Shown here in pieces: positions 4,194 through 64,000 of a DNA stretch of 64,000 bases. The number at the start of each line of letters is the position of its first letter. Within the stretch, counting starts at the first letter, position 1. The DNA is from a virus. Position numbers and translations under genes: made by a program. The stretch lies in the IMG/VR virus record IMGVR_UViG_3300045988_143923. One strand, given 5' to 3'. Under the pieces are notes generated by a model. The model was not told the origin of the DNA. It saw nothing but the letters and a program-made list of their open reading frames with translations, and ran no database searches.

Positions 4194-4859
4194 TTACTCA
4201 GCGTCGGTCTTCGCAGCCGGAGCAGCTTTCTTGCGGGTGGTCTGCTTCTTCGGTGCGGGCGCAGTCGCAGTCTGCGATGCAGTCTGCATAGCCGCCAGCT
4301 GTGCCTGGAGTGCAGCCATCTGTTCCATCATCGCCGTAATGCGCGGGTCTTCGTCCTGCTTTGCGCGTTCCTTCGCCTTGCCAAGATTGATCTCAGAGTT
4401 GCGGACGCCACGGTTGATCTCATCATAACGCTGGTTGATAATATCGATCATGCGGTTGGAGATTTCCGCACCATCATCGTTCTGCAGAGCAACCATATGA
4501 CTGCGAACACGATGAATCTCCGCAACATCGGCAATCTTCACGAACCGCGCCGCTGCATCCATATCGTTTTCACGAATAATGCGGTCGATCTCTTCATCGA
4601 AGAGAACCGTGTCCTTCCAGTTGTCGAGATAAAGCGCATGATAAATATCATCTCGCTCTTTCTCATCAAACTGAACACGACCATTGCGGAACACCGGTGT
4701 GCGCGAGTTGATGTATTCCACATCAGAGAATGGCATCGTCAGAACCGTTGGAACCCCACGGCTGCCTTCCAGATAATACTCTCGAAACTGACCGGGAAGG
4801 TTGATAGAACTGATGCTGTGGTTAAATACCTTTACTGGGGTATCTGCTTTGTAATTCAA
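4194..4859 (-). CDS. hypothetical protein with C-terminal coiled-coil and basic tail
   Basis: 221-aa ORF immediately downstream of the capsid gene; AAGGAGAC RBS. Confidence 0.6.
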   Translation of the reverse strand: MNYKADTPVKVFNHSISSINLPGQFREYYLEGSRGVPTVLTMPFSDVEYINSRTPVFRNGRVQFDEKERDDIYHALYLDNWKDTVLFDEEIDRIIRENDMDAAARFVKIADVAEIHRVRSHMVALQNDDGAEISNRMIDIINQRYDEINRGVRNSEINLGKAKERAKQDEDPRITAMMEQMAALQAQLAAMQTASQTATAPAPKKQTTRKKAAPAAKTDAE

Positions 4860-4921
4860 GATTTAGTCTCCTTAGATTTATTTTTGGGCGGACTATTGCC
4901 CGCCCGAACACCAAAGGTGGA

Positions 4922-5923
4922 TTACTTAGCGTAAACTACCTTGGCTGCCTTAGAAATGTCGGTGATGACAGAACCGAACGAGTAGCCAGAAACCTTGATG
5001 TGAATCTGTTCGTTGTTGATGTCGGTCTCCTGCAGAGTGCGGGTCTCGCCACGAGTGATGACCTTGCCGATCTTGCCAGCAGCAGCGAACAGGCGCTTGT
5101 CAGGAATAATGAAGTTGCCGTTAGCCAGCTTCTTCACACCAGACAGACCGAACAGACGGCAACCAGCGTACAGTTCAAACTTGCCGAGCTTGTTGTACTG
5201 GTTCTTCACCTCGTTGGACAAACCGGTTACTGCAGACGGCAGTTTGGTCAGGCCAACAATGTACTTGTTCTGACCAAAGATAGCCGGGGTTTCACCATTC
5301 TCAGCAACATCCATTAGGTAGGTTGCCAGATTGCGAGAAACCGTATCAGACGGAACAGCCTCAGCCTCGTTGAATACGTTGTCGCCGTCAGCCAGAGCCT
5401 TGTCGATAACGTTGATGATGCGAGCAACGCGCTCCAACTCAAATGCCTCGTTGATGTAGGCGATCAGATTAGCGACGGTCTTGTAGCCGCCGCGACGGAT
5501 GTCCTCCAGCTTCAGAGAGGTCTCAGCCTGCAGAGAGCAGAAAGTCGGCTTCAGGACCTTGTGGTCAATGAAAGAACGCGGTACGTTGCCGCCGGTGATT
5601 GCGTCATATACCTCGATGGTGTTCTTCGGGTCAACGGTTACACGGTAATCATCAAACTCGCCGATAGAATCGGTGTCGAACAGCATATCGATCAGCTCGG
5701 ACGGAGCAGAAACGGTCTCTGGAGTGAAGGTCTTGGTAATCAGAGCGGACAGCTCGTGATCCTTGTCATAGCCGGTCTTGCCCAGCTCCTTTACCCAAGC
5801 GTCGGTAACTGCGGAGATTTCCTTGTCCTCAGCGGACAGCTCAGCCGGGGAATACTTTACAGCATTAGCCCAGTCCAGAACACGGCCAGACTGATCCATA
5901 ATTGCACTGATTTCAGTGTTCAT
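4922..5923 (-). CDS. major capsid protein (putative)
   Basis: 333 aa from ATG 5923 (RBS AAAGGAAG); size, position after scaffold/decoration genes, highly biased codon use. Confidence 0.6.
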   Translation of the reverse strand: MNTEISAIMDQSGRVLDWANAVKYSPAELSAEDKEISAVTDAWVKELGKTGYDKDHELSALITKTFTPETVSAPSELIDMLFDTDSIGEFDDYRVTVDPKNTIEVYDAITGGNVPRSFIDHKVLKPTFCSLQAETSLKLEDIRRGGYKTVANLIAYINEAFELERVARIINVIDKALADGDNVFNEAEAVPSDTVSRNLATYLMDVAENGETPAIFGQNKYIVGLTKLPSAVTGLSNEVKNQYNKLGKFELYAGCRLFGLSGVKKLANGNFIIPDKRLFAAAGKIGKVITRGETRTLQETDINNEQIHIKVSGYSFGSVITDISKAAKVVYAK

Positions 5924-14368: not shown

Positions 14369-14577
14369 GCATTAGCCTCCTCGGCAAGGGCAGCCAGTCG
14401 TGCGCGGCGACGGTCGATAACGTCAAGCAGTGCAGCGGCGTCCTTGTTATGTGGGATAACGCGGAGGTACTTCTCCTCCTCGCACAGCCAATACTTGCCG
14501 GTGGCGGTACGCGGAACACGAAGCTCTGGATAAAGTTTGTAGATGGCGGCTCTCTCAGCCTTGGAAATTCGGATCAA
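14365..14577 (-). CDS. small hypothetical protein (TTG start)
   Basis: AAGGAG 10 nt upstream of TTG at 14577; the longer ATG-14706 version would run through the terminator hairpin. Confidence 0.4.
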   Translation of the reverse strand: MIRISKAERAAIYKLYPELRVPRTATGKYWLCEEEKYLRVIPHNKDAAALLDVIDRRRARLAALAEEANA

Positions 14578-14651
14578 ATCGTTATGTCTCCTTAATTTTT
14601 GATAGGTTAGAACGACGAAAAATCGCTTTCTATACCACTTTGGAGAAAAAT

Positions 14652-14697
14652 AAAAAATGGAGCGATTCCCGAAATTTCGGAATATCGCTCCATTTTT
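14652..14697. terminator. bidirectional rho-independent terminator downstream of the RNA polymerase gene
   Basis: TGGAGCGAT...ATCGCTCCA stem with extended inner pairing, flanked by an A6 run and a T5 run. Confidence 0.7.
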
Positions 14698-14726
14698 ATG
14701 TGTCATACTTCTCTCGATTTTTTATG

Positions 14727-17672
14727 TCAACTTGTCATTTTCTGCTTTTTCTCAATGTTCGCTCGGAGGATCTTCGCAATTTCCTGCATAGTGTGAGGTC
14801 GATTTCGTTCTTTGCGACGTTCTTCTTTTTCTGCTTCGTAGAGCTCTTCAAACACACGGCGTTTTGCCTCATACGCCTCGAATGTATAACCGTACAGCTT
14901 TACACTACCTGTCAGGCATTCGGTCGCGATCTGAATTGGCTCACGGCTCGTCTCGAGCATCTCGTAGAACGAAGAGTTCGCCGTCCCGAACAAAGAATCG
15001 AAGAGCAGCTTACTCACGTCTGAATTTTCTTCTTTCTCCATGTCACGCAAGATAACATACATAGTAGCCGTATTGCATTTGTATTTTCCAACATATTCAA
15101 TCAAATCTCGCTTAATTTCCTTAATCTCGTCCCAGTATGCTTCATAGCGTTCATTGGCATCATGATTATCTCCATCTTTGACAGGAGACGCCAGAGCTCC
15201 ATAGATGGAAGCTATCTGTCGGCGCGCATCTCGAACAGCTTCAATAAACTTCCGTGCCAGCTCATACCGCGCCCCAGCCGTGCCGACCATTACCGGGTCG
15301 ATTACATAACTAAAGGGCTTATTTGCTTTGTACGAGCCTCGCCAGAACCGGCAGCGGTTGATTGTGTGCTGAACGTAGTCCATCGCGGTTTTGTGAAACA
15401 GATAGGCTTTCTTTTCGCTATCATAGTATCCTTTACGGCGAGCAAGCGTCCCGAAGAAGTTCGGCTTGATTGCGCGACCCTTGTCGTCACGGCGCTCATA
15501 CTTAGCTTTCAGGCGCTTGTACTCGTCGCGGTTGTTTACCACAAACTCTTTTTTTGCTTTATCAATTTCCAGGCCGCTCATGACATCTAGCATAGACGTA
15601 TCATAGTAAATCTCAGCCACATCCTCAAAAGCCGCGCCGCTGTTGAGCTTATCCCAAAGCAGACTGTTAAGCTCCTGAGAAAGGTTGATAATCTCGCCGA
15701 TCATATTTTCGCTAGTTTTGATGTCGAGGTCTGTCTGCTGGGCACTGGTATAAGCACGCTTGGTTTTTTTAGACTCAACCAACGAAGTCGGAACTTTGAA
15801 GAGGGAGTAATTCTTCTCAGCCGCCTTAATCAGCATCGGATCATCAGTCAACATGCACGTGTCCGAGTCAAAATCAGCACCTGACAATCTTTGTAAAATA
15901 TTCTCGCCGATAGAATTCAAGCATACGATTTCTTCTGTTAAGTTCATATACCGGCGCACTTCAGGCACATACAGGTTGTCCGCCAGCAAGATATTCCCCT
16001 GACACACATGCGGACTGCGTGACCCCAGTAGACGCTGACCGTCATCAAACCGCAGTGACATCACATGACCAACCGGGATAGACGACTCGCCGTCGAACTG
16101 CCCAATAGACGCTTTCAGCATTTCCAGTGGATTGCCGACCAGAGTTGAATAATTACCGTTGACCAAAACATGGCCGCGACGGATGTTGTTCTGATACGAA
16201 CGAATCAGCCCGTCTCGGAACTCGGCATACATCTGCGTCTGTGCGAATCTGTCGTTGATACCCAACAGACGGAAGATAATGTCGTTTCTGGTCAGCAGTG
16301 GAGACTTCATCTCACTGGCCGCCGACTGCTGTTTCAGATGATAGCGCATAACCGCCGGATTGTTCTTCAGCTGTCGCATGTACTCGATGGACGGTTCGAG
16401 GAACTCATCCACCTCTTCCTGCGACATCTGCAGAGTATTCAGTAGCTGATAATGGGTAGACACCATACGTCCGTCAAAGAAGTGTGTCTTCTTCTCATGC
16501 TTTACCACGCCGAACATAGGGTCAGTACGTTTCAGCCACTCGCGCAGCCGGCCAAACTTCAAATACTTAATGCTGGACGGTGTAGTGATCAGCTTGATGT
16601 CCTCTATGGACTTCGCTAACGTGAATCCGTTCAGCTGCTCGATTTTCGTAATCCCGTGGTCAGCAAGGAACTGCTGAATGTTTGCGTTGAAGCAGCAGGA
16701 CTTGAAAAATCGGTTTCGGAGCAGCAGCATGCCGTACTGCTCGTACTTGGGGCCAAACAGAGACTTGTCCATCAAAGACTGACCGTCCCAGATGCTGTTC
16801 GTGATCTCGACGTGCTCGGGGCCAGACACCAGATGACCGTCTTCACGCACTCTGGTCGCGATAACGTCATCCGTAAACGTGCTCTCAAAATCATCGATTA
16901 CCAGAAAGTTCTCCGGCCGCACCTCCAGCGTGTCCACAATAGAGCTTGCCGTCAGCGCGATATAGCTTTCCAGAGCAGCGAGGTCAATCGCCTGTCCCGG
17001 CTGCACCTTGATGCCGCACATCTCCCACTTGTGCATAGCGGGGTAGAGGCGTTCATCGATGTACAAACACTTGCCAACACGAGAAGAACCGGCCGACCGC
17101 TTGTAACGAACATAATGGATACCGTCACAATAGAAGCCCTTTTCGTAAAGCTCCTCGCGGATGTCAGCAACACTAACCTCGGTGGCAATGTTAATCTTTG
17201 CTTTGTACTGGCCGTCTTCCAGATAGAAATACTTGCCGAGTACGGAATGGGGTAGGGGGTTCTGGACATTCGTGTCGCACTGGATGGCAATCAGCTCGCC
17301 GTCGACAACATACACGCAGTCATCCATGTTCTCGGCAATCTCATCGTATCGCCAGCCGTTTTTGATGTACAGCGTCTTGCGGATACGGTTGAATGCCTTG
17401 ACTGCGTAATGCGCCGTCACGTTGATAACACGGTGGGTGTATTCCTTGCCGCCCAACTCAAAAGAGAAATTCCTGCGGCGGTATACCCGCTCGTAGACGT
17501 CTCTCAACTTGAGCAGGTCGAGCGAGTAATCCAGCGTGTTTCTGAATCGCTTCAGATTGAACCCGCCGTCCGAAGACCGGATGTTGTATCCGATCTCGGT
17601 TGGACGGTCATAGTGGTTTGCGAGGTAGACATCCTTGCCGTCCACACTTGGAATGTATACGGCATTCGTCAT
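14727..17672 (-). CDS. single-subunit two-barrel RNA polymerase (YonO / RdRP-like)
   Basis: 981 aa; ...GSRSPHVCQGNILL...LSGADFDSDTCMLTDD: RxP segment followed by ADFDSD, close to the universal beta-prime NADFDGD metal-binding motif. Confidence 0.7.
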   Translation of the reverse strand: MTNAVYIPSVDGKDVYLANHYDRPTEIGYNIRSSDGGFNLKRFRNTLDYSLDLLKLRDVYERVYRRRNFSFELGGKEYTHRVINVTAHYAVKAFNRIRKTLYIKNGWRYDEIAENMDDCVYVVDGELIAIQCDTNVQNPLPHSVLGKYFYLEDGQYKAKINIATEVSVADIREELYEKGFYCDGIHYVRYKRSAGSSRVGKCLYIDERLYPAMHKWEMCGIKVQPGQAIDLAALESYIALTASSIVDTLEVRPENFLVIDDFESTFTDDVIATRVREDGHLVSGPEHVEITNSIWDGQSLMDKSLFGPKYEQYGMLLLRNRFFKSCCFNANIQQFLADHGITKIEQLNGFTLAKSIEDIKLITTPSSIKYLKFGRLREWLKRTDPMFGVVKHEKKTHFFDGRMVSTHYQLLNTLQMSQEEVDEFLEPSIEYMRQLKNNPAVMRYHLKQQSAASEMKSPLLTRNDIIFRLLGINDRFAQTQMYAEFRDGLIRSYQNNIRRGHVLVNGNYSTLVGNPLEMLKASIGQFDGESSIPVGHVMSLRFDDGQRLLGSRSPHVCQGNILLADNLYVPEVRRYMNLTEEIVCLNSIGENILQRLSGADFDSDTCMLTDDPMLIKAAEKNYSLFKVPTSLVESKKTKRAYTSAQQTDLDIKTSENMIGEIINLSQELNSLLWDKLNSGAAFEDVAEIYYDTSMLDVMSGLEIDKAKKEFVVNNRDEYKRLKAKYERRDDKGRAIKPNFFGTLARRKGYYDSEKKAYLFHKTAMDYVQHTINRCRFWRGSYKANKPFSYVIDPVMVGTAGARYELARKFIEAVRDARRQIASIYGALASPVKDGDNHDANERYEAYWDEIKEIKRDLIEYVGKYKCNTATMYVILRDMEKEENSDVSKLLFDSLFGTANSSFYEMLETSREPIQIATECLTGSVKLYGYTFEAYEAKRRVFEELYEAEKEERRKERNRPHTMQEIAKILRANIEKKQKMTS

Positions 17673-44614: not shown

Positions 44615-44708
44615 AGAGGAGTGGTGTAACGGTCAGCACGCAGGGTTCTAACCCCTGAGCAGGTGACACCCTGCGTCGGTCTGGGTTCGAGTCCCGGCTC
44701 CTCCGCCA
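44615..44708 (+). tRNA. amber suppressor tRNA (anticodon CTA), class-II scaffold
   Basis: Anticodon arm CAGGG-TTCTAAC-CCCTG (CTA at 44648-44650); 23-nt variable region with GCAGG/CCTGC helix; T arm CTGGG-TTCGAGT-CCCGG; acceptor AGAGGAG/CTCCTCC (A1-C72 mismatch); G73; CCA. Confidence 0.75.
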
Positions 44709-48708: not shown

Positions 48709-48912
48709 ATGTTTTTTGATCTCGGAGAAACCTACAGCGTCATCATTGAGCAGTACATCGGAAATACGTTGGTCAGCCGTCAGCAGATAGCCGCACCGAA
48801 AGAATTTTTGATGATGCAGTTTATGGGGCTATGTGAGGAAGCCTCTCGTCAGCCGCAGCCAATCAAGCTGAGAATGGTTCGCTATGAAGAGGAGTCAATG
48901 ACCCATGACTAA
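48709..48912 (+). CDS. hypothetical protein
   Basis: 67-aa ORF, weak RBS. Confidence 0.5.
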   Translation: MFFDLGETYSVIIEQYIGNTLVSRQQIAAPKEFLMMQFMGLCEEASRQPQPIKLRMVRYEEESMTHD

Positions 48913-49198
48913 AGTCACGGGCTTGCGCAAACGAGCTCAGATTTTAGCTATGCTCGAAAGAGTGCATTGACTACCCTATGCACCGTAAGAGGTGCCCCGT
49001 TGCTCGCGAATAGATAGTTACCGCATAGCGTTAATCCTAACTGTGCGCTCTAAGACAACACATCACATAAAGCTGAGGTAAGGCCGACAGGTGTGGCTGA
49101 GTAAACCGCTTGCAACTTTGGGTAAGGATTTCGACTCCTCTTTAGAGGAGAACAGCTTCTTTTTAGTTGTTAATTTATTAGGAAAGGAGCGTGACATC
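48913..49198 (+). ncRNA. candidate omega-RNA (HEARO-type) upstream of iscB
   Basis: ORF-free, stem-rich (e.g. CTCCTC-TTTA-GAGGAG) and located where IscB guide RNAs are encoded; boundaries not determined. Confidence 0.45.
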
Positions 49199-50458
49199 AT
49201 GTATGTATACGTTATCAACAAGCATGGCGAGCCTTTGATGCCATGCTCATCACGCAAGGCTCGTACATTGTTGAACAATAAGAAAGCGTGTGTAGTGAAG
49301 CGCACGCCGTTTACCATCAAGCTCCTGCACGGCAGTGCAGGATACAAACAACCGATCACCCTCGGCGTTGACGCAGGAAGTAAACACATTGGTCTTTCTG
49401 TATCGACTGAAACTCATGAAATCTATCGCGAGGAGTTTGCGCCTCGTAATGATGTAGTGGATTTACTTTCTACACGCAGAGAATTCCGTCATGCAAGACG
49501 CAATCGAAAGACTCGCCACCGTGCACCGAGATTTAATAATCGCGTACATAGCAAACACAAGGGTTGGTTAGCTCCATCCGTAGAGGTTAAAATTCAGGAG
49601 CATATCACTGTTATTAAGCATGTGTGTCAGATTATGCCTATCTCGCTTGTTCGAGTGGAAACGGCAGAGTTCGACACGCAGCGCCTGAAAGCAATGATTG
49701 CAGGGAAACCTCTGCCGGTGGGTACAGATTATCAGTTTGGTGAAATGTACGACGAATACAATGTTCGTCAGTATGTATTGAAGCGTGATAACTATACTTG
49801 CCAGTGCTGTGGAGCACATGCAACAAAGACAAAGCAGGTTAAGCTGCATGTACATCATTTGGAGAGTCGAAAGGTAGGAGGTAATGCGCCAAATAATCTG
49901 ATTACTTTGTGTCCAATCTGTCATAAGGCTATCCATGAAGGTAAGAAAGCTCTTGGTAAGAAGAAACGCGGCAAGCCGCTTCGAGATGCTGCGTTCATGG
50001 GTATCATGCGAAAGACCCTGCTTGCTCGGCTGCGTGAAGAGTTATCAATCCCGGTGCAACAGACGTATGGCTACATTACTAAGATGCTTCGTGAGAAGAA
50101 TAATCTTCTTAAAAGCCACATGAATGATGCATTGTGCATTGCAAAACATCCGAAAGCAGCACCTTGCGAAAATTGTTATCGGTCGAAAGCCGTAAGGCAT
50201 CACAATCGGCAGATTCACAAGGCAACGATCCTTAAAGGCGGTATTCGTAAGAATAATCAAGCTCCATACATTGTAAAAGGTTTCCGCCTTTGGGACAAGG
50301 TTCTGTATAACGGACAGGAATGCTTTATCTCCGGACGACGTGCGACAGGATATTTTGCCTTGAAAAAGTTAGACGGCACGGTTGTTACCACCGGTGCATC
50401 ATATAAAAAGTTGCGGTTGTTGGAAACCACTAAAAATTATTTAAGAGAAAGGATGTGA
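49199..50458 (+). CDS. iscB: IscB-like RNA-guided nuclease (PLMP + RuvC + HNH)
   Basis: 419 aa from ATG 49199: GEPLMPC (PLMP), LGVDAGSKHIG (RuvC-I), Arg-rich bridge TRREFRHARRNRKTRHR, ETAEFD (RuvC-II), CQCCG...HVHHLESRKVGG...NLITLCPICHKAIH (HNH), SHMNDALCIA (RuvC-III). Confidence 0.8.
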   Translation: MYVYVINKHGEPLMPCSSRKARTLLNNKKACVVKRTPFTIKLLHGSAGYKQPITLGVDAGSKHIGLSVSTETHEIYREEFAPRNDVVDLLSTRREFRHARRNRKTRHRAPRFNNRVHSKHKGWLAPSVEVKIQEHITVIKHVCQIMPISLVRVETAEFDTQRLKAMIAGKPLPVGTDYQFGEMYDEYNVRQYVLKRDNYTCQCCGAHATKTKQVKLHVHHLESRKVGGNAPNNLITLCPICHKAIHEGKKALGKKKRGKPLRDAAFMGIMRKTLLARLREELSIPVQQTYGYITKMLREKNNLLKSHMNDALCIAKHPKAAPCENCYRSKAVRHHNRQIHKATILKGGIRKNNQAPYIVKGFRLWDKVLYNGQECFISGRRATGYFALKKLDGTVVTTGASYKKLRLLETTKNYLRERM

Positions 50459-55733: not shown

Positions 55734-55848
55734 TCCGGTGTAGCTCAATAGGCAGAGCGCGAAACATGTGGACTGATAAGTCCGCTGACAGCAATTTTCT
55801 TTTAGATTTGTAATCTCGATGCTGTCGGTTCGAATCCGGCCTCCGGGC
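55734..55848 (+). tRNA. tRNA-Thr(TGT)-like gene with a 42-nt insertion 5' of the anticodon loop
   Basis: Acceptor TCCGGTG/CTCCGGG (one mismatch), D arm GCTC-AATAGGCA-GAGC, 5' anticodon-stem CGAAA, insert 55765-55806, loop TTTGTAA, TCTCG, T arm GTCGG-TTCGAAT-CCGGC. Confidence 0.4.
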
Positions 55849-56046: not shown

Positions 56047-56304
56047 ATCCTCACCGTGCGGAGGAAATTATTTGTCCGTGAGCAAACTCTACTCACACAC
56101 ACCGCTTGGCACGGCAAGCGAACCCTCTCGAGAGCTGCTGAACGCATTTGGAGAAAATGTGCAAGGCAAAGGGTGGCGAACCAGCCTGGAACTTACCCTC
56201 TCTACAACTGGTTCGGAAAAACCGTTTCACTCTTCTTCACGGGCGTAAGGTAAGCCGAAGTAAGAAGAAAACCGGCGACGAGGTTGCAAACTCCCGCCGG
56301 ATAT
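56047..56304 (+). ncRNA. 258-nt ORF-free structured spacer within the tRNA array
   Basis: Consecutive helices: CCTC/GAGG, GTGAG/CTCAC, CGCTTG/CAAGCG, CTCTCGAGAG, TCTTCTT/AAGAAGA, CCGGCG/CGCCGG. Confidence 0.35.
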
Positions 56305-56564: not shown

Positions 56565-56694
56565 ACGGCGGTAGCAAAGCGGTAATGCGTCATCCATAAA
56601 AAATGCGAGCTGACAAGTTCACTGACAGCAATCTTAACAGTAAAAAGATATGCCATGATGATAATCGCTGGTTCGACTCCAGCCCGCCGTACCA
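56565..56694 (+). tRNA. tRNA-Gly(GCC)-like gene with a 55-nt insertion 5' of the anticodon loop
   Basis: Perfect acceptor ACGGCGG/CCGCCGT, D arm GCA-AAGCGGTAA-TGC, anticodon stem TCATC...GATGA separated by the insert (~56595-56649) plus loop (C)TGCCAT, T arm GCTGG-TTCGACT-CCAGC, CCA. Confidence 0.45.
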
Positions 56695-56863: not shown

Positions 56864-58417
56864 ATGGATTTTACAACCGCAATGGCTAACACGCTGAACG
56901 AAGATTACAACGTCAGCGTAACCGAGAACGGCGCTGTCGGTTACAGAACGACCGGCAAAGCGCTGCTCGACCTGAATTTCTCCGTAGCCTCGCTCCGCAG
57001 CGCAAGCGAAGCTGAGATCGTGAGTAAGTTCGTCAAGGCATTCTTCGAGGACAAAATGGCCGCGATGAAGTGGCTGTTCTTCGCCCGAGATGTTCGCGGT
57101 GGACTCGGCGAGCGCCGATTGTTCCGCACCGTAATGAAGTATCTGGCGGACAACCTGCCGGAATACGTCCGGCCAGTAATCGAGTTGATTGCAGAATACG
57201 GTCGCTATGATGACCTGCTGTGCCTGTTGGATACAGATTTGGAAGTAAAAGTTTTGGACTACATCTACTTTCAGTTCAATTATGACATCCATCGTTATGA
57301 AGAAGGTAATCCGATCTCACTGCTAGCAAAATGGCTTCCGTCTCCGGGCGCTTCTTCTTACAATTCCCGTCGATATGCAAAGATTATTTGTAATCGACTG
57401 AACTTCACTCAGAAGTATTACCGCCAGACTCTTTCCAAACTACGCGGCTATCTCGATGTAGTCGAGAAGAAAATGTCCGCAAAGCAGTGGGGCGAGATCA
57501 AATATGAAGCAGTCCCGTCCCGCGCAAATCTCATTTATAATAAGGCGTTTCTGAGGAACGATGAGGAGCGCCGCCGTGCTTATCTGGAAAGCCTCGCTAA
57601 GGGCGAAACCAAGATAAACGCAGGCACGCTGTTCCCGCACGAGATCGTCCATAAGTATGGCAACTCTGGATGGAATACAATCACCGAGTGTAACGAAACG
57701 CTCGAACAACTGTGGAAGGCTCTGCCTGATACGGTGAACGGCAACGGGAACACCATTGTCGTAGCGGACGGCAGCGGCAGTATGACCTGCGGCGTAGACC
57801 CGCACAGCAGCGTAACTGCACTGGACGTAGCAAATGCACTTGCGATTTACTTCGCGGAGCATTCCTCCGGCCAGTTCAAGGACAAGTACATCACGTTTTC
57901 CACTCGTCCTCGGCTGGTTGATTTCTCCAAAGCAAAGAACCTGCGTGAGAAGCTGTTAATCGCTAAGCAGCATAACGAGATGGGAAATACCAACATTGAA
58001 GCTGTTTTTAACCTGATTTTGACCACAGCGGTCAACAATCGAATGAAGCAGGAAGATATGCCGCAGAATATTCTCATCATCTCCGATATGGAGTTCGACT
58101 CCTGTGCAACTTGCGGCAGTCAAACGGGTTACTGGAGCCGAAAGCGGCCGGATTCCCGTCTGTTTAACGTGATTCGTCAGAAATATGAAGCAGCCGGTTA
58201 TAAACTGCCGCGCCTCGTGTTCTGGAATGTCAACAGCCGCACCGGAACCATTCCGGTTAAGGAAAACGATCTCGGTGTTGCTCTGGTCAGCGGCTTCAGC
58301 CAGAATGTAGCTTCTATGGTGATGAGCGGTAAGCTCGACCCGTATGAATGCCTGATGGAAACGCTAAACAGTAAGAGATATGATCCAATCGCGAAAGCAC
58401 TGGAGGGGATTGCGTGA
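56864..58417 (+). CDS. DUF2828-like (TROVE-like) + vWA domain protein
   Basis: 517 aa; N-terminal ...TENGAVGY.TTGKALLDLNF........WLFFARDVRGGLGERRLFR...; MIDAS motif VVADGSGSMT. Confidence 0.65.
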   Translation: MDFTTAMANTLNEDYNVSVTENGAVGYRTTGKALLDLNFSVASLRSASEAEIVSKFVKAFFEDKMAAMKWLFFARDVRGGLGERRLFRTVMKYLADNLPEYVRPVIELIAEYGRYDDLLCLLDTDLEVKVLDYIYFQFNYDIHRYEEGNPISLLAKWLPSPGASSYNSRRYAKIICNRLNFTQKYYRQTLSKLRGYLDVVEKKMSAKQWGEIKYEAVPSRANLIYNKAFLRNDEERRRAYLESLAKGETKINAGTLFPHEIVHKYGNSGWNTITECNETLEQLWKALPDTVNGNGNTIVVADGSGSMTCGVDPHSSVTALDVANALAIYFAEHSSGQFKDKYITFSTRPRLVDFSKAKNLREKLLIAKQHNEMGNTNIEAVFNLILTTAVNNRMKQEDMPQNILIISDMEFDSCATCGSQTGYWSRKRPDSRLFNVIRQKYEAAGYKLPRLVFWNVNSRTGTIPVKENDLGVALVSGFSQNVASMVMSGKLDPYECLMETLNSKRYDPIAKALEGIA

Positions 58418-58465
58418 TACTTCTTCTGTACTTTCTGATTTGTATCATTGTCAGCGGAGCAAATT

Positions 58466-58600
58466 ATGCCTTTTCTCAAAACCCCGAAGAGCGAAGGCTT
58501 CGATCCTGATGAATTCGATGTACTCATGGTTGTCGCAGGGCTTTTATGGCCTCTTGTTGTCGGAATGGCCATTGCATATGGTCTATTCAAAGACAATTGA
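58466..58600 (+). CDS. 44-aa membrane peptide
   Basis: ATG 58466; hydrophobic VLMVVAGLLWPLVVGMAIAYGLF; weak RBS. Confidence 0.3.
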   Translation: MPFLKTPKSEGFDPDEFDVLMVVAGLLWPLVVGMAIAYGLFKDN

Positions 58601-58625
58601 TCGATGGGAAACGAAAGGAGAACAA

Positions 58626-59174
58626 ATGAAAGTTTTAGTAGTAGTGGATATGCAGAATGACTTCATCGATGGCGCTCTCGGTACGCCGGAAGCAAAAGCT
58701 ATTGTTTCAAAGGTAGTCGAAAAAATCAAAGCTGTCGGTGATGACGATATTATTTGCGTAACAAAGGACACACATTACGCGGATTATCTCGATACACAAG
58801 AGGGGAAATTGCTCCCGATTCCTCACTGCCTTGTGGAAACGCACGGTTGGGAGATCGAGCAGACTGTTCAGAATGAATTAGACAAACGAGGGGAAACTCT
58901 CGTATTCGAGAAAGAAACGTTCGGTTCTGTTGATCTTGGTGACGCACTGGATTTGGTTTGGATCGACAATCTGGATGAAATTATTTTGGTTGGCCTTTGC
59001 ACAGACATTTGCGTTATTTCCAACGCTTTGCTTATCAAAGCATATCTCCCAGAGGTAAAGATCACAGTAGATGCGTCCTGCTGTGCCGGAACAACGCCTG
59101 AAAACCATAAGAATGCGCTGGCAGCCATGAAAATGTGCCAGATTAACATCGAAAACGAGGAGGAAGCCGTATGA
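58626..59174 (+). CDS. isochorismatase-family hydrolase, nicotinamidase (PncA)-like
   Basis: 182 aa from ATG 58626 (RBS AAAGGAGAA); VVVDMQNDF, ...KD.H, LVGLCTDICV catalytic Cys motif. Confidence 0.7.
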   Translation: MKVLVVVDMQNDFIDGALGTPEAKAIVSKVVEKIKAVGDDDIICVTKDTHYADYLDTQEGKLLPIPHCLVETHGWEIEQTVQNELDKRGETLVFEKETFGSVDLGDALDLVWIDNLDEIILVGLCTDICVISNALLIKAYLPEVKITVDASCCAGTTPENHKNALAAMKMCQINIENEEEAV

Positions 59175-59965
59175 TTTCCGTAAATGGGGACCCGATTGAT
59201 TTTACCTGTTTTCCAGACGGAACGACTTCGTTTCGTTACGATCCAAGCTTGGAAGAAGAGGAGTTTGTCATCCAGTGGAAGTATGATGGTGATCATGAGT
59301 GCATTTTGCTGTGGTATCTGGTTCATCGTATACGAAGCTATGACTCTCGTGCTGAGATTATACTTCAGCTTCCGTATATTCCCAACGCGAGAATGGATCG
59401 TGTTAAAAGCTCTGACGAAGTTTTCACATTAAAATACTTTGCAGAGTTTATCAATAGTCTGTCTTTTGATTTTGTGGTTGTTCGTGATCCACATTCTAAT
59501 GTAGCCCCAGCATTGCTCAATAACGTTAAGGTTCTCGATGCTAGATATTATATCATGCAAGCAATCGCGAATTGTATGACATGCGGAGAGGATTTGCTGC
59601 TCTGTTACCCTGATGAAGGAGCTGCAAAACGTTACACTGAGCTTCTGAAGCGCGAGCACGTTTTCTGTATCAAACACCGCGACTGGCGCACGGGGAATAT
59701 CGAGGGGTTGGAGCTGACCAACCCGGAACTTGTCGAAGGACGCAACGTTCTGATTGTAGATGACATCTGCTCTCGCGGCGGTACGTTCACTCATACAGCC
59801 AAAGCACTCAGAGAAGCCGGGGCGAAGGATATTTTCCTTTATATCACCCATTGCGAAAACACCATCAAAAAGGGCACAATTCTGACTGACGGCCTGATTA
59901 AGCACGTTTACACCACCGGAAGCATTTATCGCGGCAACCACGAAATGATTACGGTTCTGTTCTGA
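59171..59965 (+). CDS. ribose-phosphate pyrophosphokinase (Prs)-like protein; NARP1 Adps candidate
   Basis: 264 aa; PRPP/phosphoribosyltransferase loop VLIVDDICSRGGT; Prs-like two-domain length; coupled to the NAMPT-like gene. Confidence 0.65.
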   Translation: MISVNGDPIDFTCFPDGTTSFRYDPSLEEEEFVIQWKYDGDHECILLWYLVHRIRSYDSRAEIILQLPYIPNARMDRVKSSDEVFTLKYFAEFINSLSFDFVVVRDPHSNVAPALLNNVKVLDARYYIMQAIANCMTCGEDLLLCYPDEGAAKRYTELLKREHVFCIKHRDWRTGNIEGLELTNPELVEGRNVLIVDDICSRGGTFTHTAKALREAGAKDIFLYITHCENTIKKGTILTDGLIKHVYTTGSIYRGNHEMITVLF

Positions 59966-59980
59966 TAAGGAGACGAAACA

Positions 59981-61474
59981 ATGATTGACTACAATCCGCT
60001 GCTGTGCTTGGACTTCTACAAGACCTGCCACGCCGAACAGTATCCGAAGGGACTGACCCGTATGGTCAGCTATTATACGCCGCGAATGTCTCGTCTGGCA
60101 GACACAGATAAGGTAACGATGTTCGGCTTGCAAGCGTTCATCAAGGAATACCTGATTGACGGCTTTAACAAATATTTTTTCGAGCGAGATTTCGAAAAGG
60201 AAATCCTCCCGGAGTACAAGCGTGTGCTTGGCGCAACAATCGGAACTTCCGGCGTGGGCAAAGAGCGGCTGCTGAAGCTGCATAATCTCGGCTTTCTGCC
60301 TCTGATAATCAAGGCAGTTCCGGAAGGAACACGGACTAACATTCATGTGCCGCAGATCGAGATTACCAATACGTTGCCATCTTTTGTCTGGTTGGTAAAC
60401 AGCATTGAAACCATGCTGTCCTGCACAATGTGGCACACGCAGGTTTCTGCGGAGGTTGGCTATCGGTATCGCCAGATCGTCAACAAGTACGCAGACCTGA
60501 CCTGCGACGACGATGTTGACCGCGCCCGACTTCTCGGTGATTTCTCGATGAGAGGACAGGAGAGCGTCGAGAGCGCAACAAAGAGCTCGGCAGCGTTTCT
60601 GTTGAGTTTTCTCAATACAGCGACTGTCCCGGCTATTCTTTGGTTGGAACGAAATTATAACTGCAGCTGCGATCAGGAACCGGTTGGATATGGTGGTATT
60701 TCGACCGAACACAGCGTAATGTGCTCCAATGCCGCAGTTGACGGTGATGAGATTACACATCTGCGCCGACTGCTCACCGAGATTTATCCGCATAGCAGTT
60801 TCTCCGTTGTGTCTGACAGCTACGACTATTGGAATTTAGTTGATAAGCTGTTGCCGCAGCTCAAGAACGAAATCCTTGAACACAATGGAACTCTTTCTAT
60901 TCGCGGTGACAGCGGTGATCCGGTCGAGGTTGTCACCCAGACAGTATTTCATCTCTGGAATATTTTTGGCGGCACGAGAAACAGCAAGGGATTCAAAGTT
61001 CTGAATCCGCATATCAAGGCGCTGTACGGAGACAGCATTACGCCGCAGCGTTGCGAAAAGATTTACTCAATCCTGAAAGAGAATGGGTTCGCAATTAACA
61101 ACGTGGCTTTGGGTGTCGGCTCCTTCTCCATGGAATGTCTGGAGACGATTGACGAAAATGGAAATGTCCAGTATAACCCGTATACGAGAGACACGTTCGG
61201 CATCGCGGTCAAGGCAACCTACGCAGAGGATGAGAACGGGCCGATTATGATTTTCAAAAATCCAAAGACGGACACCGGCCATTTTAAGAAGTCCCAGCGC
61301 GGATGCTGTATCGTGCGGGAGAACGACGGCGAGTATTCTTACGAGGACGGACACACCTTTAAGGAAACATACGACCTTGATAATGAGATGGCACCTGTAT
61401 TCATCCACGGTAATATGGTCAATGAATACACGCTGGCAGAGGTGCGCGACAGATTGCACGGAGGTAAATTCTAA
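59981..61474 (+). CDS. NAMPT-family phosphoribosyltransferase (NadV/Namat-like)
   Basis: 497 aa; N-terminal NPLLCLDFYKTCHAEQYP (compare N..L.TDSYK..H..QYP), ...RGDSGDP..., ...GVGSF... Confidence 0.75.
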   Translation: MIDYNPLLCLDFYKTCHAEQYPKGLTRMVSYYTPRMSRLADTDKVTMFGLQAFIKEYLIDGFNKYFFERDFEKEILPEYKRVLGATIGTSGVGKERLLKLHNLGFLPLIIKAVPEGTRTNIHVPQIEITNTLPSFVWLVNSIETMLSCTMWHTQVSAEVGYRYRQIVNKYADLTCDDDVDRARLLGDFSMRGQESVESATKSSAAFLLSFLNTATVPAILWLERNYNCSCDQEPVGYGGISTEHSVMCSNAAVDGDEITHLRRLLTEIYPHSSFSVVSDSYDYWNLVDKLLPQLKNEILEHNGTLSIRGDSGDPVEVVTQTVFHLWNIFGGTRNSKGFKVLNPHIKALYGDSITPQRCEKIYSILKENGFAINNVALGVGSFSMECLETIDENGNVQYNPYTRDTFGIAVKATYAEDENGPIMIFKNPKTDTGHFKKSQRGCCIVRENDGEYSYEDGHTFKETYDLDNEMAPVFIHGNMVNEYTLAEVRDRLHGGKF

Positions 61475-62226
61475 TGGGAAACGCAAAGACACTGAAAAAT
61501 CATATTGTCCAGTGGATTATGAACTACTTCGAAGATAACGGCAAAGACTGTTACGCCGTTGTTGGCATCTCTGGAGGGAAGGACAGCAGCGTTGTTGCCG
61601 CTCTCTGCGCTGAGGCACTCGGCAAAGACCGTGTTGTCGGCGTGCTGATGCCGAATGACAAACAGTCAGACATCGAAGATTCGTACCGGTTGGTTGAGGC
61701 TCTCGGAATCAAAAGTGTCGAAATCAATGTCGGCGACGCTTATTCTATGATGCTCAGCGAAGGTTCGCACGAACTACCTATCAGCAAGCAGGCGGAGGTA
61801 AATCTGGCACCCAGACTTCGAATGGCGGCTCTGTACATGGTAGCGCAGTCTTTAGAGCACGGCGGCCGCGTAGCTAACACCTGCAATTATTCCGAAGACT
61901 ACGTTGGTTACTCCACCAAGTACGGTGACAGCGCCGGTGATTTCAGTCCACTGTCCGGCTTGCTTGTCAGCGATGTCGTAGCGGTCGGTCACGAGCTGCC
62001 GATCCCTGCCGATCTGGTGGACAAGACTCCATCTGACGGACTTTGCGGAAAGTCTGACGAGTCAAATCTCGGTTTTACTTACGCTCAGTTGGAGAAGCAT
62101 ATCGTAGATGGCAGCTGTGGTGATCGAGAGATCGACAAGAAGATTTGCAATCTGCATTATAAGAACCTTCACAAGATTACGCCCATGCCGTATTTCAAAA
62201 AGCAGTTGCCCCTGGAAGGCTTCTAA
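61474..62226 (+). CDS. nadE: NH3-dependent NAD+ synthetase
   Basis: 250 aa; PP-loop GISGGKDSSVVAAL; ...GTxNxSE-like NTCNYSEDYVGYSTKYGD. Confidence 0.8.
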   Translation: MGNAKTLKNHIVQWIMNYFEDNGKDCYAVVGISGGKDSSVVAALCAEALGKDRVVGVLMPNDKQSDIEDSYRLVEALGIKSVEINVGDAYSMMLSEGSHELPISKQAEVNLAPRLRMAALYMVAQSLEHGGRVANTCNYSEDYVGYSTKYGDSAGDFSPLSGLLVSDVVAVGHELPIPADLVDKTPSDGLCGKSDESNLGFTYAQLEKHIVDGSCGDREIDKKICNLHYKNLHKITPMPYFKKQLPLEGF

Positions 62227-62264
62227 GCTACAGGTTTGCGGTCAACCTTAAACCGCACTTTTAC

Positions 62265-62335
62265 GGGTGAGTGGTGAACAGGAAACACCGGAGAGTAATA
62301 TCATCGAAAAGCAGGTTCGAATCCTGCCTCACCCG
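62265..62335 (+). ncRNA. tRNA-like element with degenerate anticodon arm
   Basis: Acceptor GGGTGAG/CTCACCC, D arm GTG-AACAGGAAA-CAC, T arm GCAGG-TTCGAAT-CCTGC; the 17 nt in the anticodon-arm position (GGAGAGTAATATCATCG) do not pair; no CCA. Confidence 0.4.
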
Positions 62336-62437
62336 AATCGCACCGCAGATCAACAAGGCTTGCAAGCACCTGCGGTGAACAGTCCGTGCCTGCGAGGTGT
62401 CGTCGGACTATAATTCAGAAAAAACGCCTCGCTACAT

Positions 62438-62505
62438 TCCTCGGGACAGGTTTCGGCCGTAATTCGCGATATCGGCCTCGAGTTCGAATCTCGACCGGGG
62501 AGCCA
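62438..62505 (+). ncRNA. 68-nt tRNA-like element without a recognisable D arm
   Basis: Acceptor TCCTCGG/CCGGGGA, T arm TCGAG-TTCGAAT-CTCGA, G73, CCA; middle is GGCCG...CGGCC with a 13-nt loop. Confidence 0.4.
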
Positions 62506-62508
62506 CAT

Positions 62509-62598
62509 GGCACAGTAAGCCTAAAGGTAAGGCAGTAGTCTTGAAAACTACCAGTAACCCGTAAGGGTGTGAGATTTCGAAATTCTCCTGTGCCGCCA
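62509..62598 (+). tRNA. tRNA-Ser (TGA)
   Basis: Class II; acceptor GGCACAG/CTGTGCC, anticodon arm GTAGT-CTTGAAA-ACTAC, variable helix ACCC/GGGT, G73, CCA; T stem has a T-T closing pair. Confidence 0.8.
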
Positions 62599-62706
62599 TC
62601 GTGTTGGTGCAACGCACGCCTCACCGGCACAAATGTACTTAGAGCGGTGTTCTCTCATGTCACGTCCGTTAAGCGTGACAACTATTGTCGAAAAGAGGTG
62701 ATTCTT

Positions 62707-63132
62707 TTGTACGACGTATTGACAATCTCAGATTACATTATCAGGCGTTGCTCTAACGAGGGGTACACTGTCAGTAATCTGAAGCTACAGAAACTGCTGT
62801 ACTTCGTTCAAGCCGAGTTCCTTGTCGTTACTGGGAAGCCATGCTTTCGAGAGAAGATTGTCGCTTGGGATTTTGGACCCGTAATTCCTGAAGTATATCA
62901 CGAGTTTTGCATATTTGGTTCCGCTCATATTCCGGTAGGTGTAGCTTCAGCGCCGGGTTTGTCTAAAGAAACGGCAGAACTTATCGACGGTATCGTCTTT
63001 ACATGTCTGCCATTCAGCTCGTCACAGCTTGTCGAAATCACTCAGCATCAAAACCCGTGGATCTGTGCTTATGCAAAGGGCTACGGCACAGAGATTACGA
63101 ATGAGTCCATCCTCAACTTTTTCGCGGAATAA
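62707..63132 (+). CDS. DUF4065 (Panacea/SocA-like) antitoxin-domain protein
   Basis: ~141 aa from TTG 62707; ...NLKLQKLLYFVQAEFLV.TGKP.F.EKIVAWDFGPVIPEVYHEF... is the DUF4065 core pattern. Confidence 0.6.
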   Translation: MYDVLTISDYIIRRCSNEGYTVSNLKLQKLLYFVQAEFLVVTGKPCFREKIVAWDFGPVIPEVYHEFCIFGSAHIPVGVASAPGLSKETAELIDGIVFTCLPFSSSQLVEITQHQNPWICAYAKGYGTEITNESILNFFAE

Positions 63133-63135
63133 TAT

Positions 63136-63203
63136 CTCCCTCCATGTACGGCGAGCGCAATCCGCGGCACGATGCTCGGCCGGTTCGATTCCGGCGAGGG
63201 AGA
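63136..63203 (+). ncRNA. 68-nt tRNA-like element with compressed D/anticodon region
   Basis: Acceptor CTCCCTC/GAGGGAG, T arm GCCGG-TTCGATT-CCGGC; only 36 nt between them and no clean cloverleaf; no CCA. Confidence 0.35.
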
Positions 63204-63857
63204 ATCGGCTGACCTTTCCTGTCGATTCAGAAAAGAGGAGTGGCACAACCTTGCCGGTATTTTGGTTAAACCGTGGTTAGGGCGACAAGCCCAAATAATC
63301 CTCTGTGCTGCTCGCACAAGACATCACCTTAAGCGTTCAAGGAGATGGAGAAGAGCAAGCATTAAAGTGTCTAAGATTGAAAACGGGAGCGTTTATAGGG
63401 AACGGGAGTTGAACGCCTTCTGTTCCCGAGTTACTGGTTGCAAAGTGTCGGGCACGCCAGCAAAATGAGCATCGTCTGCAAGCGATACCCCTCGCAAACA
63501 GGTGATTAGACGGACGCACACGGCGGATTCCGCGCTCGACCAGAAAACGGCCGCACAGCGGTGTGATTGGTTGAGAACAAGCCCGCAAATTGGGGGAGAG
63601 TTTAGATGTCCGAGGGTTTGCTCAGATCTTCGGATGTCAAACTCGCATTAAGTTATATTGCGACAGTTGCCGGAATAGACCGGTGGCTTAAACTTTATGG
63701 CAAAAAAGAGAGGCGGTGATTTTAGTGGGAGTAAAGCAGAACGTAAAGCATTTCTTTAAGGGGCTGTACGAGGCAAATCTCGCGGCTCAAAAGGAAGTCC
63801 GTGGATTTAGCTATTTTGACATTCGATAAACATCGCCCGCGTTTCGCGGGCCTATAT
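63204..63857 (+). ncRNA. ~650-nt ORF-free, helix-dense RNA candidate (ROOL/GOLLD-like context)
   Basis: No convincing ORF; long-range and pseudoknot-type pairings (GCGTTCAA...GGGAAC...TTGAACGC...GTTCCC; AGAGGA/TCCTCT; GAGTTT/AAACTC; CACAC/GTGTG) plus many local hairpins; flanked by tRNA and tRNA-like genes. Confidence 0.45.
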
Positions 63858-63935
63858 GCTGGCATGGCGCAATTGGTAGCGCATCTGAGTTGTAATCAGA
63901 GGGTTTTCTCGGTTCGATTCCGAGTGCCAGCTCCA
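63858..63935 (+). tRNA. tRNA-Thr (TGT)
   Basis: Acceptor GCTGGCA/TGCCAGC, anticodon arm TCTGA-GTTGTAA-TCAGA, T arm CTCGG-TTCGATT-CCGAG, CCA. Confidence 0.85.
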
Positions 63936-63963
63936 TAATAAAACCATTGTTTGAGGTGAAATT

Positions 63964-64000
63964 ATGATCGGCGCAATTATCGGTGATATTGTCGGCTCAC
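63964..64000 (+). CDS. 5' end of a gene; N-terminus resembles ADP-ribosylglycohydrolase family (truncated by window)
   Basis: GAGGTGA RBS; MIGAIIGDIVGS... resembles the common ARH N-terminus; only 12 codons visible. Confidence 0.35.
   Translation, partial: MIGAIIGDIVGS

Follow-up and report, generated by a model that had tools for sequence, protein, structure and literature searches.

The 64,000-nucleotide (nt) DNA of IMG/VR record IMGVR_UViG_3300045988_143923, referred to here in its full length as the window, carries a structured region at positions 63204-63857, between a tRNA-like element (63135-63203) and a tRNA-Thr(UGU) gene with an encoded CCA (63858-63935). Positions are those of the window and features lie on its + strand unless another contig or strand is named. 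The tRNA-Thr gene was called by ARAGORN, which found 13 tRNA genes in the window, and scored 59.7 bits with the Rfam tRNA model. An earlier note, made from the sequence alone, had described positions 63204-63857 as a unit of about 650 nt without an open reading frame (ORF), flanked by tRNAs and carried by a phage of a Firmicute-type host. The setting was borne out: the terminase is 44% identical to terminases of SPbeta-like Bacillus phages, and the tRNA genes place the region, between tRNA-Ser/tRNA-like elements and tRNA-Thr, in the tRNA island of such a phage. The flanking tRNA was likewise confirmed on the 3' side, whereas the upstream element is not a callable tRNA, having the acceptor stem and T-arm only. 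The unit itself had to be divided, since about 450-500 nt behave as a structured RNA and the last ~130 nt hold a gene of 34 codons. When the 654-nt stretch was compared with dinucleotide shuffles, the z-scores of its fold were -3.6 (+ strand) and -2.7 (- strand), and none of 20 shuffles folded as well.

Relatives of the locus were collected by three routes: from the IMG/VR neighbours of the adjacent Panacea-domain gene, by exact-motif scans of IMG/VR and metagenome contigs, and from contigs encoding the small protein of the 34-codon gene. This recovered about 50 contigs with the same locus, with 29 distinct core sequences among them (individual relatives carry L numbers below). All recovered contigs belong to one clade of human-gut SPbeta-like phages; they measure 100-165 kb, and several carry a human-gut label. 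Throughout these contigs the order of the locus never changes, running from the tRNA-like element through domains D1, D2 and D3 and an inconstant linker to the small ORF, a hairpin and tRNA-Thr. In GenBank phages, tRNA-Thr was the only part of the region that was matched. A conserved 18-mer gave 90 matches in 185,579 GTDB species genomes, all of them chance matches by BLAST, and wider pattern scans of metagenomes and IMG/VR, which required exact motifs, returned the same clade only and no distant homologues.

The core domain D2 and its kissing pseudoknot

The conserved core of the locus is domain D2 (63300-63463, 165 nt), as defined by alignment to a covariance model, R1, which was built from six collinear sequences with a hand-drawn structure and to which all loci were realigned. 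This realignment replaced a fold of a MAFFT-only alignment, which had missed hairpin H1 because its variable stems were misaligned. R1 found exactly one copy per locus, at 78-216 bits, with no second copy in the window and no match in distant phages that share the Panacea gene. In the R1 alignment 93.4% of cells were standard pairs, compared with 36-48% when the partners were slid by 1-3 columns. Covariation analysis of relatives, which the earlier note had proposed as a check, supported the core: both-sided changes were present in 13 of its 37 pairs, and the observed covariation score was reached by none of 500 shuffles. The strand can be assigned as + because the G-U pairs would become A·C mismatches on the other strand. 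Length differences within the core are not multiples of 3, and ORF calls over it are inconsistent among relatives. These comparisons establish D2, at the level of sequence, as a conserved and selected RNA structure on the + strand.

The core opens with hairpin Pb (63305-63317), in which a constant UGCUC loop is held by a 4-base-pair (bp) stem that reads GUGC/GCAC, GCAC/GUGC, GUAC/GUAC or GCGC/GCGC; all of its cells are paired (100%), and two of the four pairs show double changes. Hairpin H1 (63322-63347), formed by CAUCACCUU and AAGGAGAUG, has compensatory changes in four of nine pairs, and lineages L001, L005 and L007 carry a rewritten inner stem. Hairpin H2 (63398-63427) has an 11-bp stem, GGGAACGGGAG/CUUCUGUUCCC, with compensatory changes in five of the 11 pairs, such as the change from GGGAAC/GUUCCC to GGGAAU/AUUCCC. 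In three lineages the inner stems of both H1 and H2 have been replaced with complementarity kept. Between these hairpins lie a single-stranded GCAUUAAAG (63359-67) and a small hairpin, AAACG-GGAG-CGUUU (63381-94), both made up of invariant or near-invariant columns in all relatives; the hairpin is neither supported nor contradicted, because its sequence never varies. The 3' part of the core (63428-63461) consists of a conserved GAGUUACUGGUUGC and helix Pe (CUGGU, 63434-38, with GCCAG, 63456-60). Pe is invariant bar one wobble change, and the hairpin inside it (63445-47 with 63453-55) is variable, with double changes in two of three pairs.

H1 and H2 are joined through their loops. The H1 loop bears the sequence GCGUUCAA (63333-63340), to which the whole 8-nt loop of H2, UUGAACGC (63409-16), is complementary, forming a loop-loop (kissing) pseudoknot between 63333-63340 and 63409-63416 that is supported by covariation of the loops. 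Four independent versions of this contact were found among the relatives: GCGUUCA/UGAACGC, GAUGCA/UGCAUC, GGCAUA/UAUGCC and GACGUAGC/GCUACGUC. Cognate loops form 6-9 contiguous Watson-Crick pairs, L006 with four being the exception, compared with a mean of 2.8 and a maximum of five for non-cognate combinations, and 0 of 20,000 loop shuffles matched all four observed values. We conclude from this loop covariation that the interleaved pairing is a genuine kissing pseudoknot between two hairpin loops. The same interleaving had been read as a pseudoknot before, from the words GCGTTCAA and TTGAACGC (63409) together with GGGAAC (63398) and GTTCCC (63422), and that reading holds. All the complementary words listed at the time occur on the + strand; one position needed correction, GCGTTCAA lying at 63333 and not at 63343. 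A second candidate pseudoknot would pair the UGCUC loop of Pb with GAGCA at 63353-57; it fits the variants, with one-sided changes only.

Flanking modules, the tRNA-like element and the 34-codon gene

Directly 3' of the tRNA-like element, the fold starts with hairpin P0 (63204-63226), in which AUCGGC and GUCGAU enclose an 11-nt loop. P0 hardly varies; its one change, from G-C to G-U, is in L007. Domain D1 (63234-63304) is closed by AGAGGA (63234-39) and UCCUCU (63299-304) and encloses two hairpins, CGGU..ACCG (63255-73) and GGGC-GACAA-GCCC (63280-92). The region from 63204 to 63304 is near-invariant, with one compensatory change, from GGGC/GCCC to GGGU/ACCC, in L029. The closing helix had been proposed from the words AGAGGA (63234) and TCCTCT (63299) and does fold in this way, but in the L001 and L005 lineages it is reduced to 4 bp in one and deleted in the other.

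Domain D3 (63464-63650) occurs in the window in a form that we call version A, with helices S1, S3 and S5 as predicted by alignment folds. S1 pairs AUCGUCUG (63471-78) with CAGGUGAU (63499-506) around GCGA-UACCCC-UCGC, S3 is formed by CUCGACCAG/UUGGUUGAG (63535-75), and S5, GAGUUU..AAACUC (63598-644), encloses a 15-bp hairpin and is kept in all version-A relatives. S5 corresponds to the proposed nested helix GAGTTT (63598)/AAACTC (63639), which is thereby retained. Two others from the same proposal, CACAC (63517)/GTGTG (63561) and CGTCT (63473)/AGACG (63508), were contradicted by variants, as relatives mostly have CATCT or GTATG, and AGACA/TGTCT was rejected in the same way. A pairing of D1 with the small-ORF region, which appeared in the minimum-free-energy fold of the single sequence, was also set aside; a by-eye comparison of variants suggests that it is not kept. 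Among the 60 pairs of version A, changes are mostly one-sided and pair-preserving, with a compensatory change in one pair. Version B, found in the other relatives, has six compensatory pairs. The two versions begin alike, with a two-step stem that ends in a UAYCCC loop, and end alike, with a long GAG/CUC-closed hairpin and GCA after it. Downstream of D3 the window has an optional linker hairpin, AGUUGCCGG-AAUAGA-CCGGUGGCU (63665-63689); types L015 and L003 lack it, and types L006 and L035 have unrelated sequence in its place.

The locus as a whole is a mosaic. Some relatives have a second copy of the tRNA-like element with a different middle part, some have an insert of ~200 nt after window position 63293, and one lineage lacks the 3' half of D1. 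The two D3 versions are deeply diverged and recombine freely with the D2 types, and the linker from D3 to the small ORF is absent, 55 nt long or of unrelated sequence, depending on the relative. As a result of these inserts the whole locus reaches 900-1,100 nt in the relatives that carry them, and the RNA part measures ~450-500 nt in the window. The optional ~200-nt insert, which lies between D1 and D2 (L001 4607-4854, L007 ~4761-5016 and L008 ~4591-4786) and does not occur in the window, is itself a structured candidate, with compensatory changes in CAGGUGAACC..GGCGAACCUG, CAGGGGGCCC..GGGGAACCUG and CAGGGUAUCCC..GGAUAGCCUG and no Rfam match.

Alignment folds resolve the architecture mostly into serial hairpins, with at most one or two small junctions. 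Serial hairpins without an enclosing long-range helix, combined with the mosaic anatomy (the duplicated tRNA-like element, the insert, the half-deletion of D1, the D3 versions and the optional linker hairpin), are what one might find if the locus were a cluster of distinct small RNAs, 60-190 nt in length and individually processed. We regard this explanation as improbable, given that D1, D2 and D3 occur together and in the same order in all ~50 contigs, that D2 is never found alone, that the kissing interaction joins elements 60 nt apart, and that no internal tRNA-like processing signals were found between the domains.

The tRNA-like element at the 5' side (63135-63203) folds as a minihelix. 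Its acceptor stem, UCUCCCUC/GAGGGAGA, has 8 bp, its T-arm reads GCCGG-UUCGAUU-CCGGC, and its middle stem, CGAGC/GCUCG, carries a 17-nt loop in which CCGCGG occurs. The element has no D-arm, no normal anticodon arm and no encoded CCA. Neither ARAGORN nor the Rfam tRNA model called it as a tRNA, and its sole match in a permissive Rfam search was to tRNA-Sec (18.6 bits, E=0.94). The element is conserved in all relatives. An acceptor/T-arm minihelix is the minimal substrate of RNase P, RNase Z and the CCA enzyme.

Other unusual tRNAs and tRNA-like sequences are present in these phages. Insertions of ~45-75 nt in the anticodon region were found in two tRNA genes of the window (55734-55848 and 56566-56692) and in one each of L015 (3642-3767) and L003 (1426-1551), and may be short unusual tRNA introns. 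Both window genes contain the motif CTGACAGCAAT, and the one at 56566-56692 was missed by ARAGORN and Rfam despite a perfect acceptor stem, T-arm and encoded ACCA. Outside the called tRNAs, at 62264-62336, 62482, 44588, 44818 and 55692, there are additional tRNA-like elements or orphan T-loop motifs (GTTCGAnnC); the first of these has an 8-bp acceptor stem, and ARAGORN reports a 2-nt 'anticodon' for it. At 44615-44708 lies the gene for a suppressor-type tRNA (anticodon CUA), which ARAGORN labels tRNA-Pyl. This tRNA hints at amber read-through or recoding in the phage, for which the statistics of TAG-recoded ORFs were not decisive.

The small ORF lies at 63725-63829, with a GUG start at 63725, a UAA stop at 63827-29 and a Shine-Dalgarno site, GAGAGGCGGUGA, at 63708-19. 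It encodes a protein of 34 amino acids (aa), MGVKQNVKHFFKGLYEANLAAQKEVRGFSYFDIR, with a conserved start, and its substitutions are of the coding type: in 22 distinct DNA versions the variable sites number 9, 3 and 15 at codon positions 1, 2 and 3, and 10 of the 20 variable codons are purely synonymous, the remainder being conservative. The protein belongs to no Pfam or PHROG family, and a protein search returned 28 clusters, all at least 83% identical. The ORF is followed by a G+C-rich hairpin, GCCCGCG-UUU-CGCGGGC (63835-63851), which is kept in all relatives and ends 6 nt before tRNA-Thr; it has no U-tail on the + strand, and a terminator scan flagged it on the - strand only. We interpret the last ~130 nt as a small protein gene plus this hairpin, in which only those 34 codons are conserved as coding sequence.

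In most relatives, gene callers annotate a longer ORF of 74 aa that reads through the terminal hairpin of D3, and the window carries a tRNA with anticodon CUA; both could be taken to mean that this ORF, another ORF or an alternative code explains the conservation. Several observations make such an explanation highly improbable. The 34 C-terminal codons are the only part conserved as protein, and the extension is frameshifted by -1 in the window and by +1 in L036 and L152, is interrupted by stops in L037 and L038, and does not exist in version-B and L015-type loci. In the window the break is caused by an A-run at 63700-63709, GGCAAAAAA(G)GAGAGG, that is one base shorter than in most relatives. 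Because of these frameshifts, the 74-aa ORF appears not to be under selection. Recoding of TAG or TGA opened no long conserved frame across D1-D3, in agreement, for the structured part, with the earlier claim of an ORF-free stretch. At 63204-63700 there was no conserved reading frame with an excess of third-position changes, and the core lengths that are not multiples of 3 and the compensatory helix changes likewise point to RNA.

The adjacency of the RNA and the 34-codon gene raises the question of whether the RNA is a cis-acting 5' leader that controls the translation or stability of that gene, and perhaps of downstream genes, in the manner of a very large riboswitch or thermosensor. No terminator separates the RNA from the ORF, and the strong Shine-Dalgarno site follows D3 by 20-70 nt. 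Against this, the linker is absent, 55 nt long or unrelated in different relatives, and there is no sign of a conserved alternative structure that would pair with the ribosome-binding site. The RNA matches no known riboswitch family, and we know of no precedent for a ~500-nt leader with a tRNA-like 5' module serving a 34-aa peptide. A leader function thus has something in its favour and is still, in our estimate, rather unlikely.

Instead, we favour the reading, at a probability of roughly 0.55, that positions 63135-63857 hold a small gene and, before it, an RNA from a family of large structured phage RNAs that had not been catalogued, and that the RNA acts in trans after release by tRNA-processing enzymes. 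Four features lead us to this preference: neither a convincing promoter nor a convincing terminator of its own was found for the RNA element, the element comes straight after a tRNA (tRNA-Ser) in L015, the RNA starts with an acceptor/T-arm minihelix, and the linker to the small ORF varies more than a precise expression platform would allow. The whole stretch would be transcribed as part of the phage tRNA array, RNase P would cut at the tRNA-like element and again where tRNA-Thr begins, and an RNase Z-type cleavage would follow after the tRNA-like element. The freed RNA of ~450-500 nt, with its three domains, would fold into a compact, nuclease-resistant particle whose D2 core is held by a kissing contact of 7-8 bp between the two hairpin loops, and the hairpin at 63835-51 could be protective. 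During infection the released RNA might act in trans as a scaffold or decoy, with the Ro60-like protein described below, the small basic peptide or, as proposed for the ROOL and GOLLD RNAs, other copies of itself as partners. Co-transcription, processing, action in trans and the choice of partners are thus what we infer from the anatomy of the locus.

Several points weigh against this reading. The family is narrow, with about five independent sequence lineages, all in one clade, and for this reason the covariation rests on few events. The pair counts were taken from 22 distinct rows representing these lineages, in an alignment fitted to the model. Compensatory support is sparse for D1 and for version A of D3, and absent for the tRNA-like element, whose acceptor stem has C·A mismatches in some relatives and which is a putative substrate of RNase P or RNase Z. 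In the folds, no helix connects the two ends of the complete RNA. The independent assortment of D2 types and D3 versions and the variability of the optional modules would also fit separate small RNAs, and the constant presence of the RNA and the small ORF side by side on the same strand, in every locus, would fit a leader. The ends, the abundance and the processing of the RNA are all deduced indirectly.

The Ro60-like protein and the surrounding island

The ~10 kb around the RNA encode a Band_7 protein, a protein with DUF2828 and von Willebrand factor A (vWA) domains, nicotinamidase-like, PRPP-synthetase-like, NAMPT and NAD-synthase proteins, and a Panacea-domain antitoxin. The NAD-salvage genes form a cassette at 58380-63132 (isochorismatase/nicotinamidase-like, PRPP-synthetase-like, NAMPT and NAD-synthase), with the Panacea antitoxin standing alone, and in loci L022-L046 genes for an ADP-ribosylglycohydrolase and 'Sequestin' lie downstream. 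Judged by its gene content, the island is a combined tRNA and anti-defence (counter-defence) island.

The DUF2828 protein is of particular interest. Its gene (56864-58417) encodes 517 aa with Pfam DUF2828 and DUF7788 domains and matches PHROG 850, 'RNA-binding protein', at E=2e-139. An AlphaFold2 model (pLDDT 72.6) had Ro60/TROVE structures as its top four Foldseek matches in the PDB (E=6e-9 to 2e-6); these span the full length and include the Ro60 of Thermus phage phiLo. The protein is accordingly predicted to fold like Ro60, with a TROVE-like and a vWA part. Homologues of the DUF2828 type are present in 711 GenBank phage records, and both of those inspected sit in or beside tRNA arrays. One is in Enterococcus phage VRE9_3 (L158), where an unannotated tRNA-like element without a D-arm, GCGAAAU / stem-loop / AUGGG-UUCAAAU-CCCAU / AUUUCGC (~14836-14891), lies ~110 nt upstream of the gene. 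The other is in Bacillus phage vB_BanS_Nate (L159), where the homologue abuts an array of 20 tRNAs; the 600-nt stretch that separates the array from the DUF2828 gene (14393-15000) contains neither an annotated gene nor an Rfam family. This stretch is a candidate site of another unclassified RNA. R1 had no match in the neighbourhoods of the Ro60-like genes in VRE9_3 and Nate, and neither ROOL nor GOLLD was found there.

YrlA tethers bacterial Ro60 to nucleases. By analogy, the RNA described here could be a giant Y-RNA-like partner of the Ro60-like protein and tether that protein to nucleases of the host or to damaged tRNAs. In bacteria, Y RNAs and Ro60 are encoded on one strand and no more than 4 kb apart, and the Y RNAs have a tRNA-like domain (PMC4201824). 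The Ro60 of phage phiLo binds phage-encoded Y-like RNAs (PMC12135203). Like YrlA and the phiLo RNAs Yrl1 and Yrl2, the RNA of the window has a tRNA-like module and lies, in a phage, on the same strand as a nearby gene of Ro60 type, itself annotated as RNA-binding. That gene is 4.7 kb upstream in the window but, in relatives without the NAD cassette (L023, L024, L040 and L042-L046), at a distance of ~0.5-1 kb, and the D-armless element of VRE9_3 and the tRNA array of Nate offer parallels. Unlike Y RNAs, however, the RNA has no terminal Ro-binding stem between its 5' and 3' ends, its tRNA-like element is not circularly permuted, and at ~500 nt it is about five times as long as a typical Y RNA. 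The Y-RNA motif GNCGAAN0-1G is absent from 61651-64000, including 63133-63857, no Rfam Y-RNA family was matched, and the 2.5-3 kb of upstream DNA covered in L022 and L041 showed no DUF2828 gene, the genes from Band_7 to the RNA in L041 being without one. On balance we find such a role decidedly doubtful.

A separate candidate Y RNA was considered in the ORF-free gap at 56047-56304, between tRNA-Pro and tRNA-Gly and just upstream of the Ro60-like gene. The gap contains the Y-RNA-type motif GCCGAAG at 56254, and its fold (z = -1.3) was no better than that of shuffles; the candidate was rejected.

Relation to known RNA families

We compared the region with known RNA families at two levels of stringency. 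Rfam 15 at gathering scores returned only tRNA-Thr in the region. A permissive search (E<=10) of window positions 63050-64000 and of two structural variants, L007 4400-5620 and L008 4400-5400, returned no relevant family. As a positive control, the same settings found ROOL at 130.4 bits (E=1.8e-28) in the long non-coding RNA locus of Lactobacillus salivarius pMP118 (PMC5643018), and R1 had no match in that ROOL locus. Since the ROOL control was found and the region had no Rfam match, membership in ROOL, GOLLD, HEARO, group I or II introns, RNase P, transfer-messenger RNA (tmRNA) or riboswitch families is excluded at the level of these tools, the positive control covering ROOL and not GOLLD. 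The search with the ROOL, GOLLD, HEARO, intron and RNase P models suggested by the earlier note thus came out empty for the region. Weak members should have been visible, because a HEARO match below the gathering score was detected in the same mode. A tmRNA, including permuted forms, was rejected separately, in that ARAGORN finds none and the small ORF, with its GUG start and Shine-Dalgarno site, does not resemble a tag frame.

The HEARO match is an observation in its own right. HEARO/omega-RNA (RF02033) matched 48894-49135 at 64.9 bits (E=1e-12; gathering score 83) and runs into an ORF of 455 aa with RRXRR and HNH domains (49091-50458). The segment 48894-50458 looks like an IscB-like OMEGA element inside the phage.

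The earlier note had suggested membership in ROOL or GOLLD and allowed that the RNA might equally be a new large non-coding RNA. Size class, the phage and tRNA-island setting, kissing loops and a reminiscent tRNA-like module speak for a divergent member of either class, as both adjoin phage tRNA islands, are abundant and assemble through kissing loops (PMC5737381, PMC12286853). Nevertheless, neither RF03087 nor RF01998 was matched in any of the three variants searched, at settings under which a true ROOL is unmistakable, and the architecture differs. We consider a divergent ROOL or GOLLD RNA exceedingly improbable; that suggestion fails, and the evidence favours the alternative of a new RNA.

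In terms of families, the comparisons place the RNA as a new family, absent from Rfam, in a known niche, that of the large non-coding RNAs of phage tRNA islands. Large, intricately folded RNAs of bacteria and phages are rare, and almost all that have been found do unusual things. A third unrelated family in the niche occupied by ROOL and GOLLD would mark tRNA islands as a general home for such RNAs. In this family a tRNA-like handle and a micro-protein accompany a loop-loop lock that is programmable, and the ~165-nt core is a compact, easily mutated system in which to ask what such RNAs do. The island also supplies concrete candidate partners in its NAD-salvage and anti-defence genes, the Ro60-like protein and the odd tRNA-like elements. 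More speculatively, and on balance unlikely, the RNA might be a third ornate class resembling ROOL and GOLLD that uses its tRNA-like handle and multimerizes by kissing between cognate molecules only, or else a giant Y-RNA-like partner that arms the Ro60-like protein against tRNA-targeting defences.

ROOL and GOLLD are the two known classes of phage tRNA islands and form RNA-only cages, homo-oligomeric nanocages assembled by intermolecular kissing loops (PMC12286853). Like ROOL (RF03087), the RNA described here is a large structured RNA (~500-600 nt) of Firmicute phages or prophages that adjoins tRNA genes, has pseudoknots and kissing-loop contacts, and is often overlaid by a spurious annotated ORF (LSL_1885 in L. 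salivarius, the 74-aa ORF here). It differs from the six-junction, three-pseudoknot design of ROOL in its serial hairpins with one supported and one candidate pseudoknot, as well as in its 5' tRNA-like module and 3' small gene, and it is found in one phage clade where ROOL occurs in three phyla. With GOLLD (RF01998) it shares the phage tRNA island, variable modules beside a conserved core, and linked or embedded tRNA sequences (PMC12286853). GOLLD is usually longer than 800 nt and its 3' half is universally conserved, in contrast to the RNA of the window, in which the central D2 is most conserved and the 3' domain, with its two deeply diverged versions, least. Staphylococcus phage K, a lytic myovirus from another lineage, likewise has two unclassified long non-coding RNAs beside its tRNA genes (PMC9241854); by their description they resemble the present RNA in this position and in belonging to no described family.

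The kissing loops of the RNA described here may pair within or between molecules, as their sequence fits either arrangement, and a loop-loop lock that changes its sequence between strains is unusual. A precedent for such behaviour is the pRNA of the phi29 family, an RNA of ~120-170 nt encoded at the genome end, whose loops pair between molecules to build the ring of the packaging motor. As in that RNA, the two loops of D2 covary among related phages, their pairing being kept while the sequence changes.

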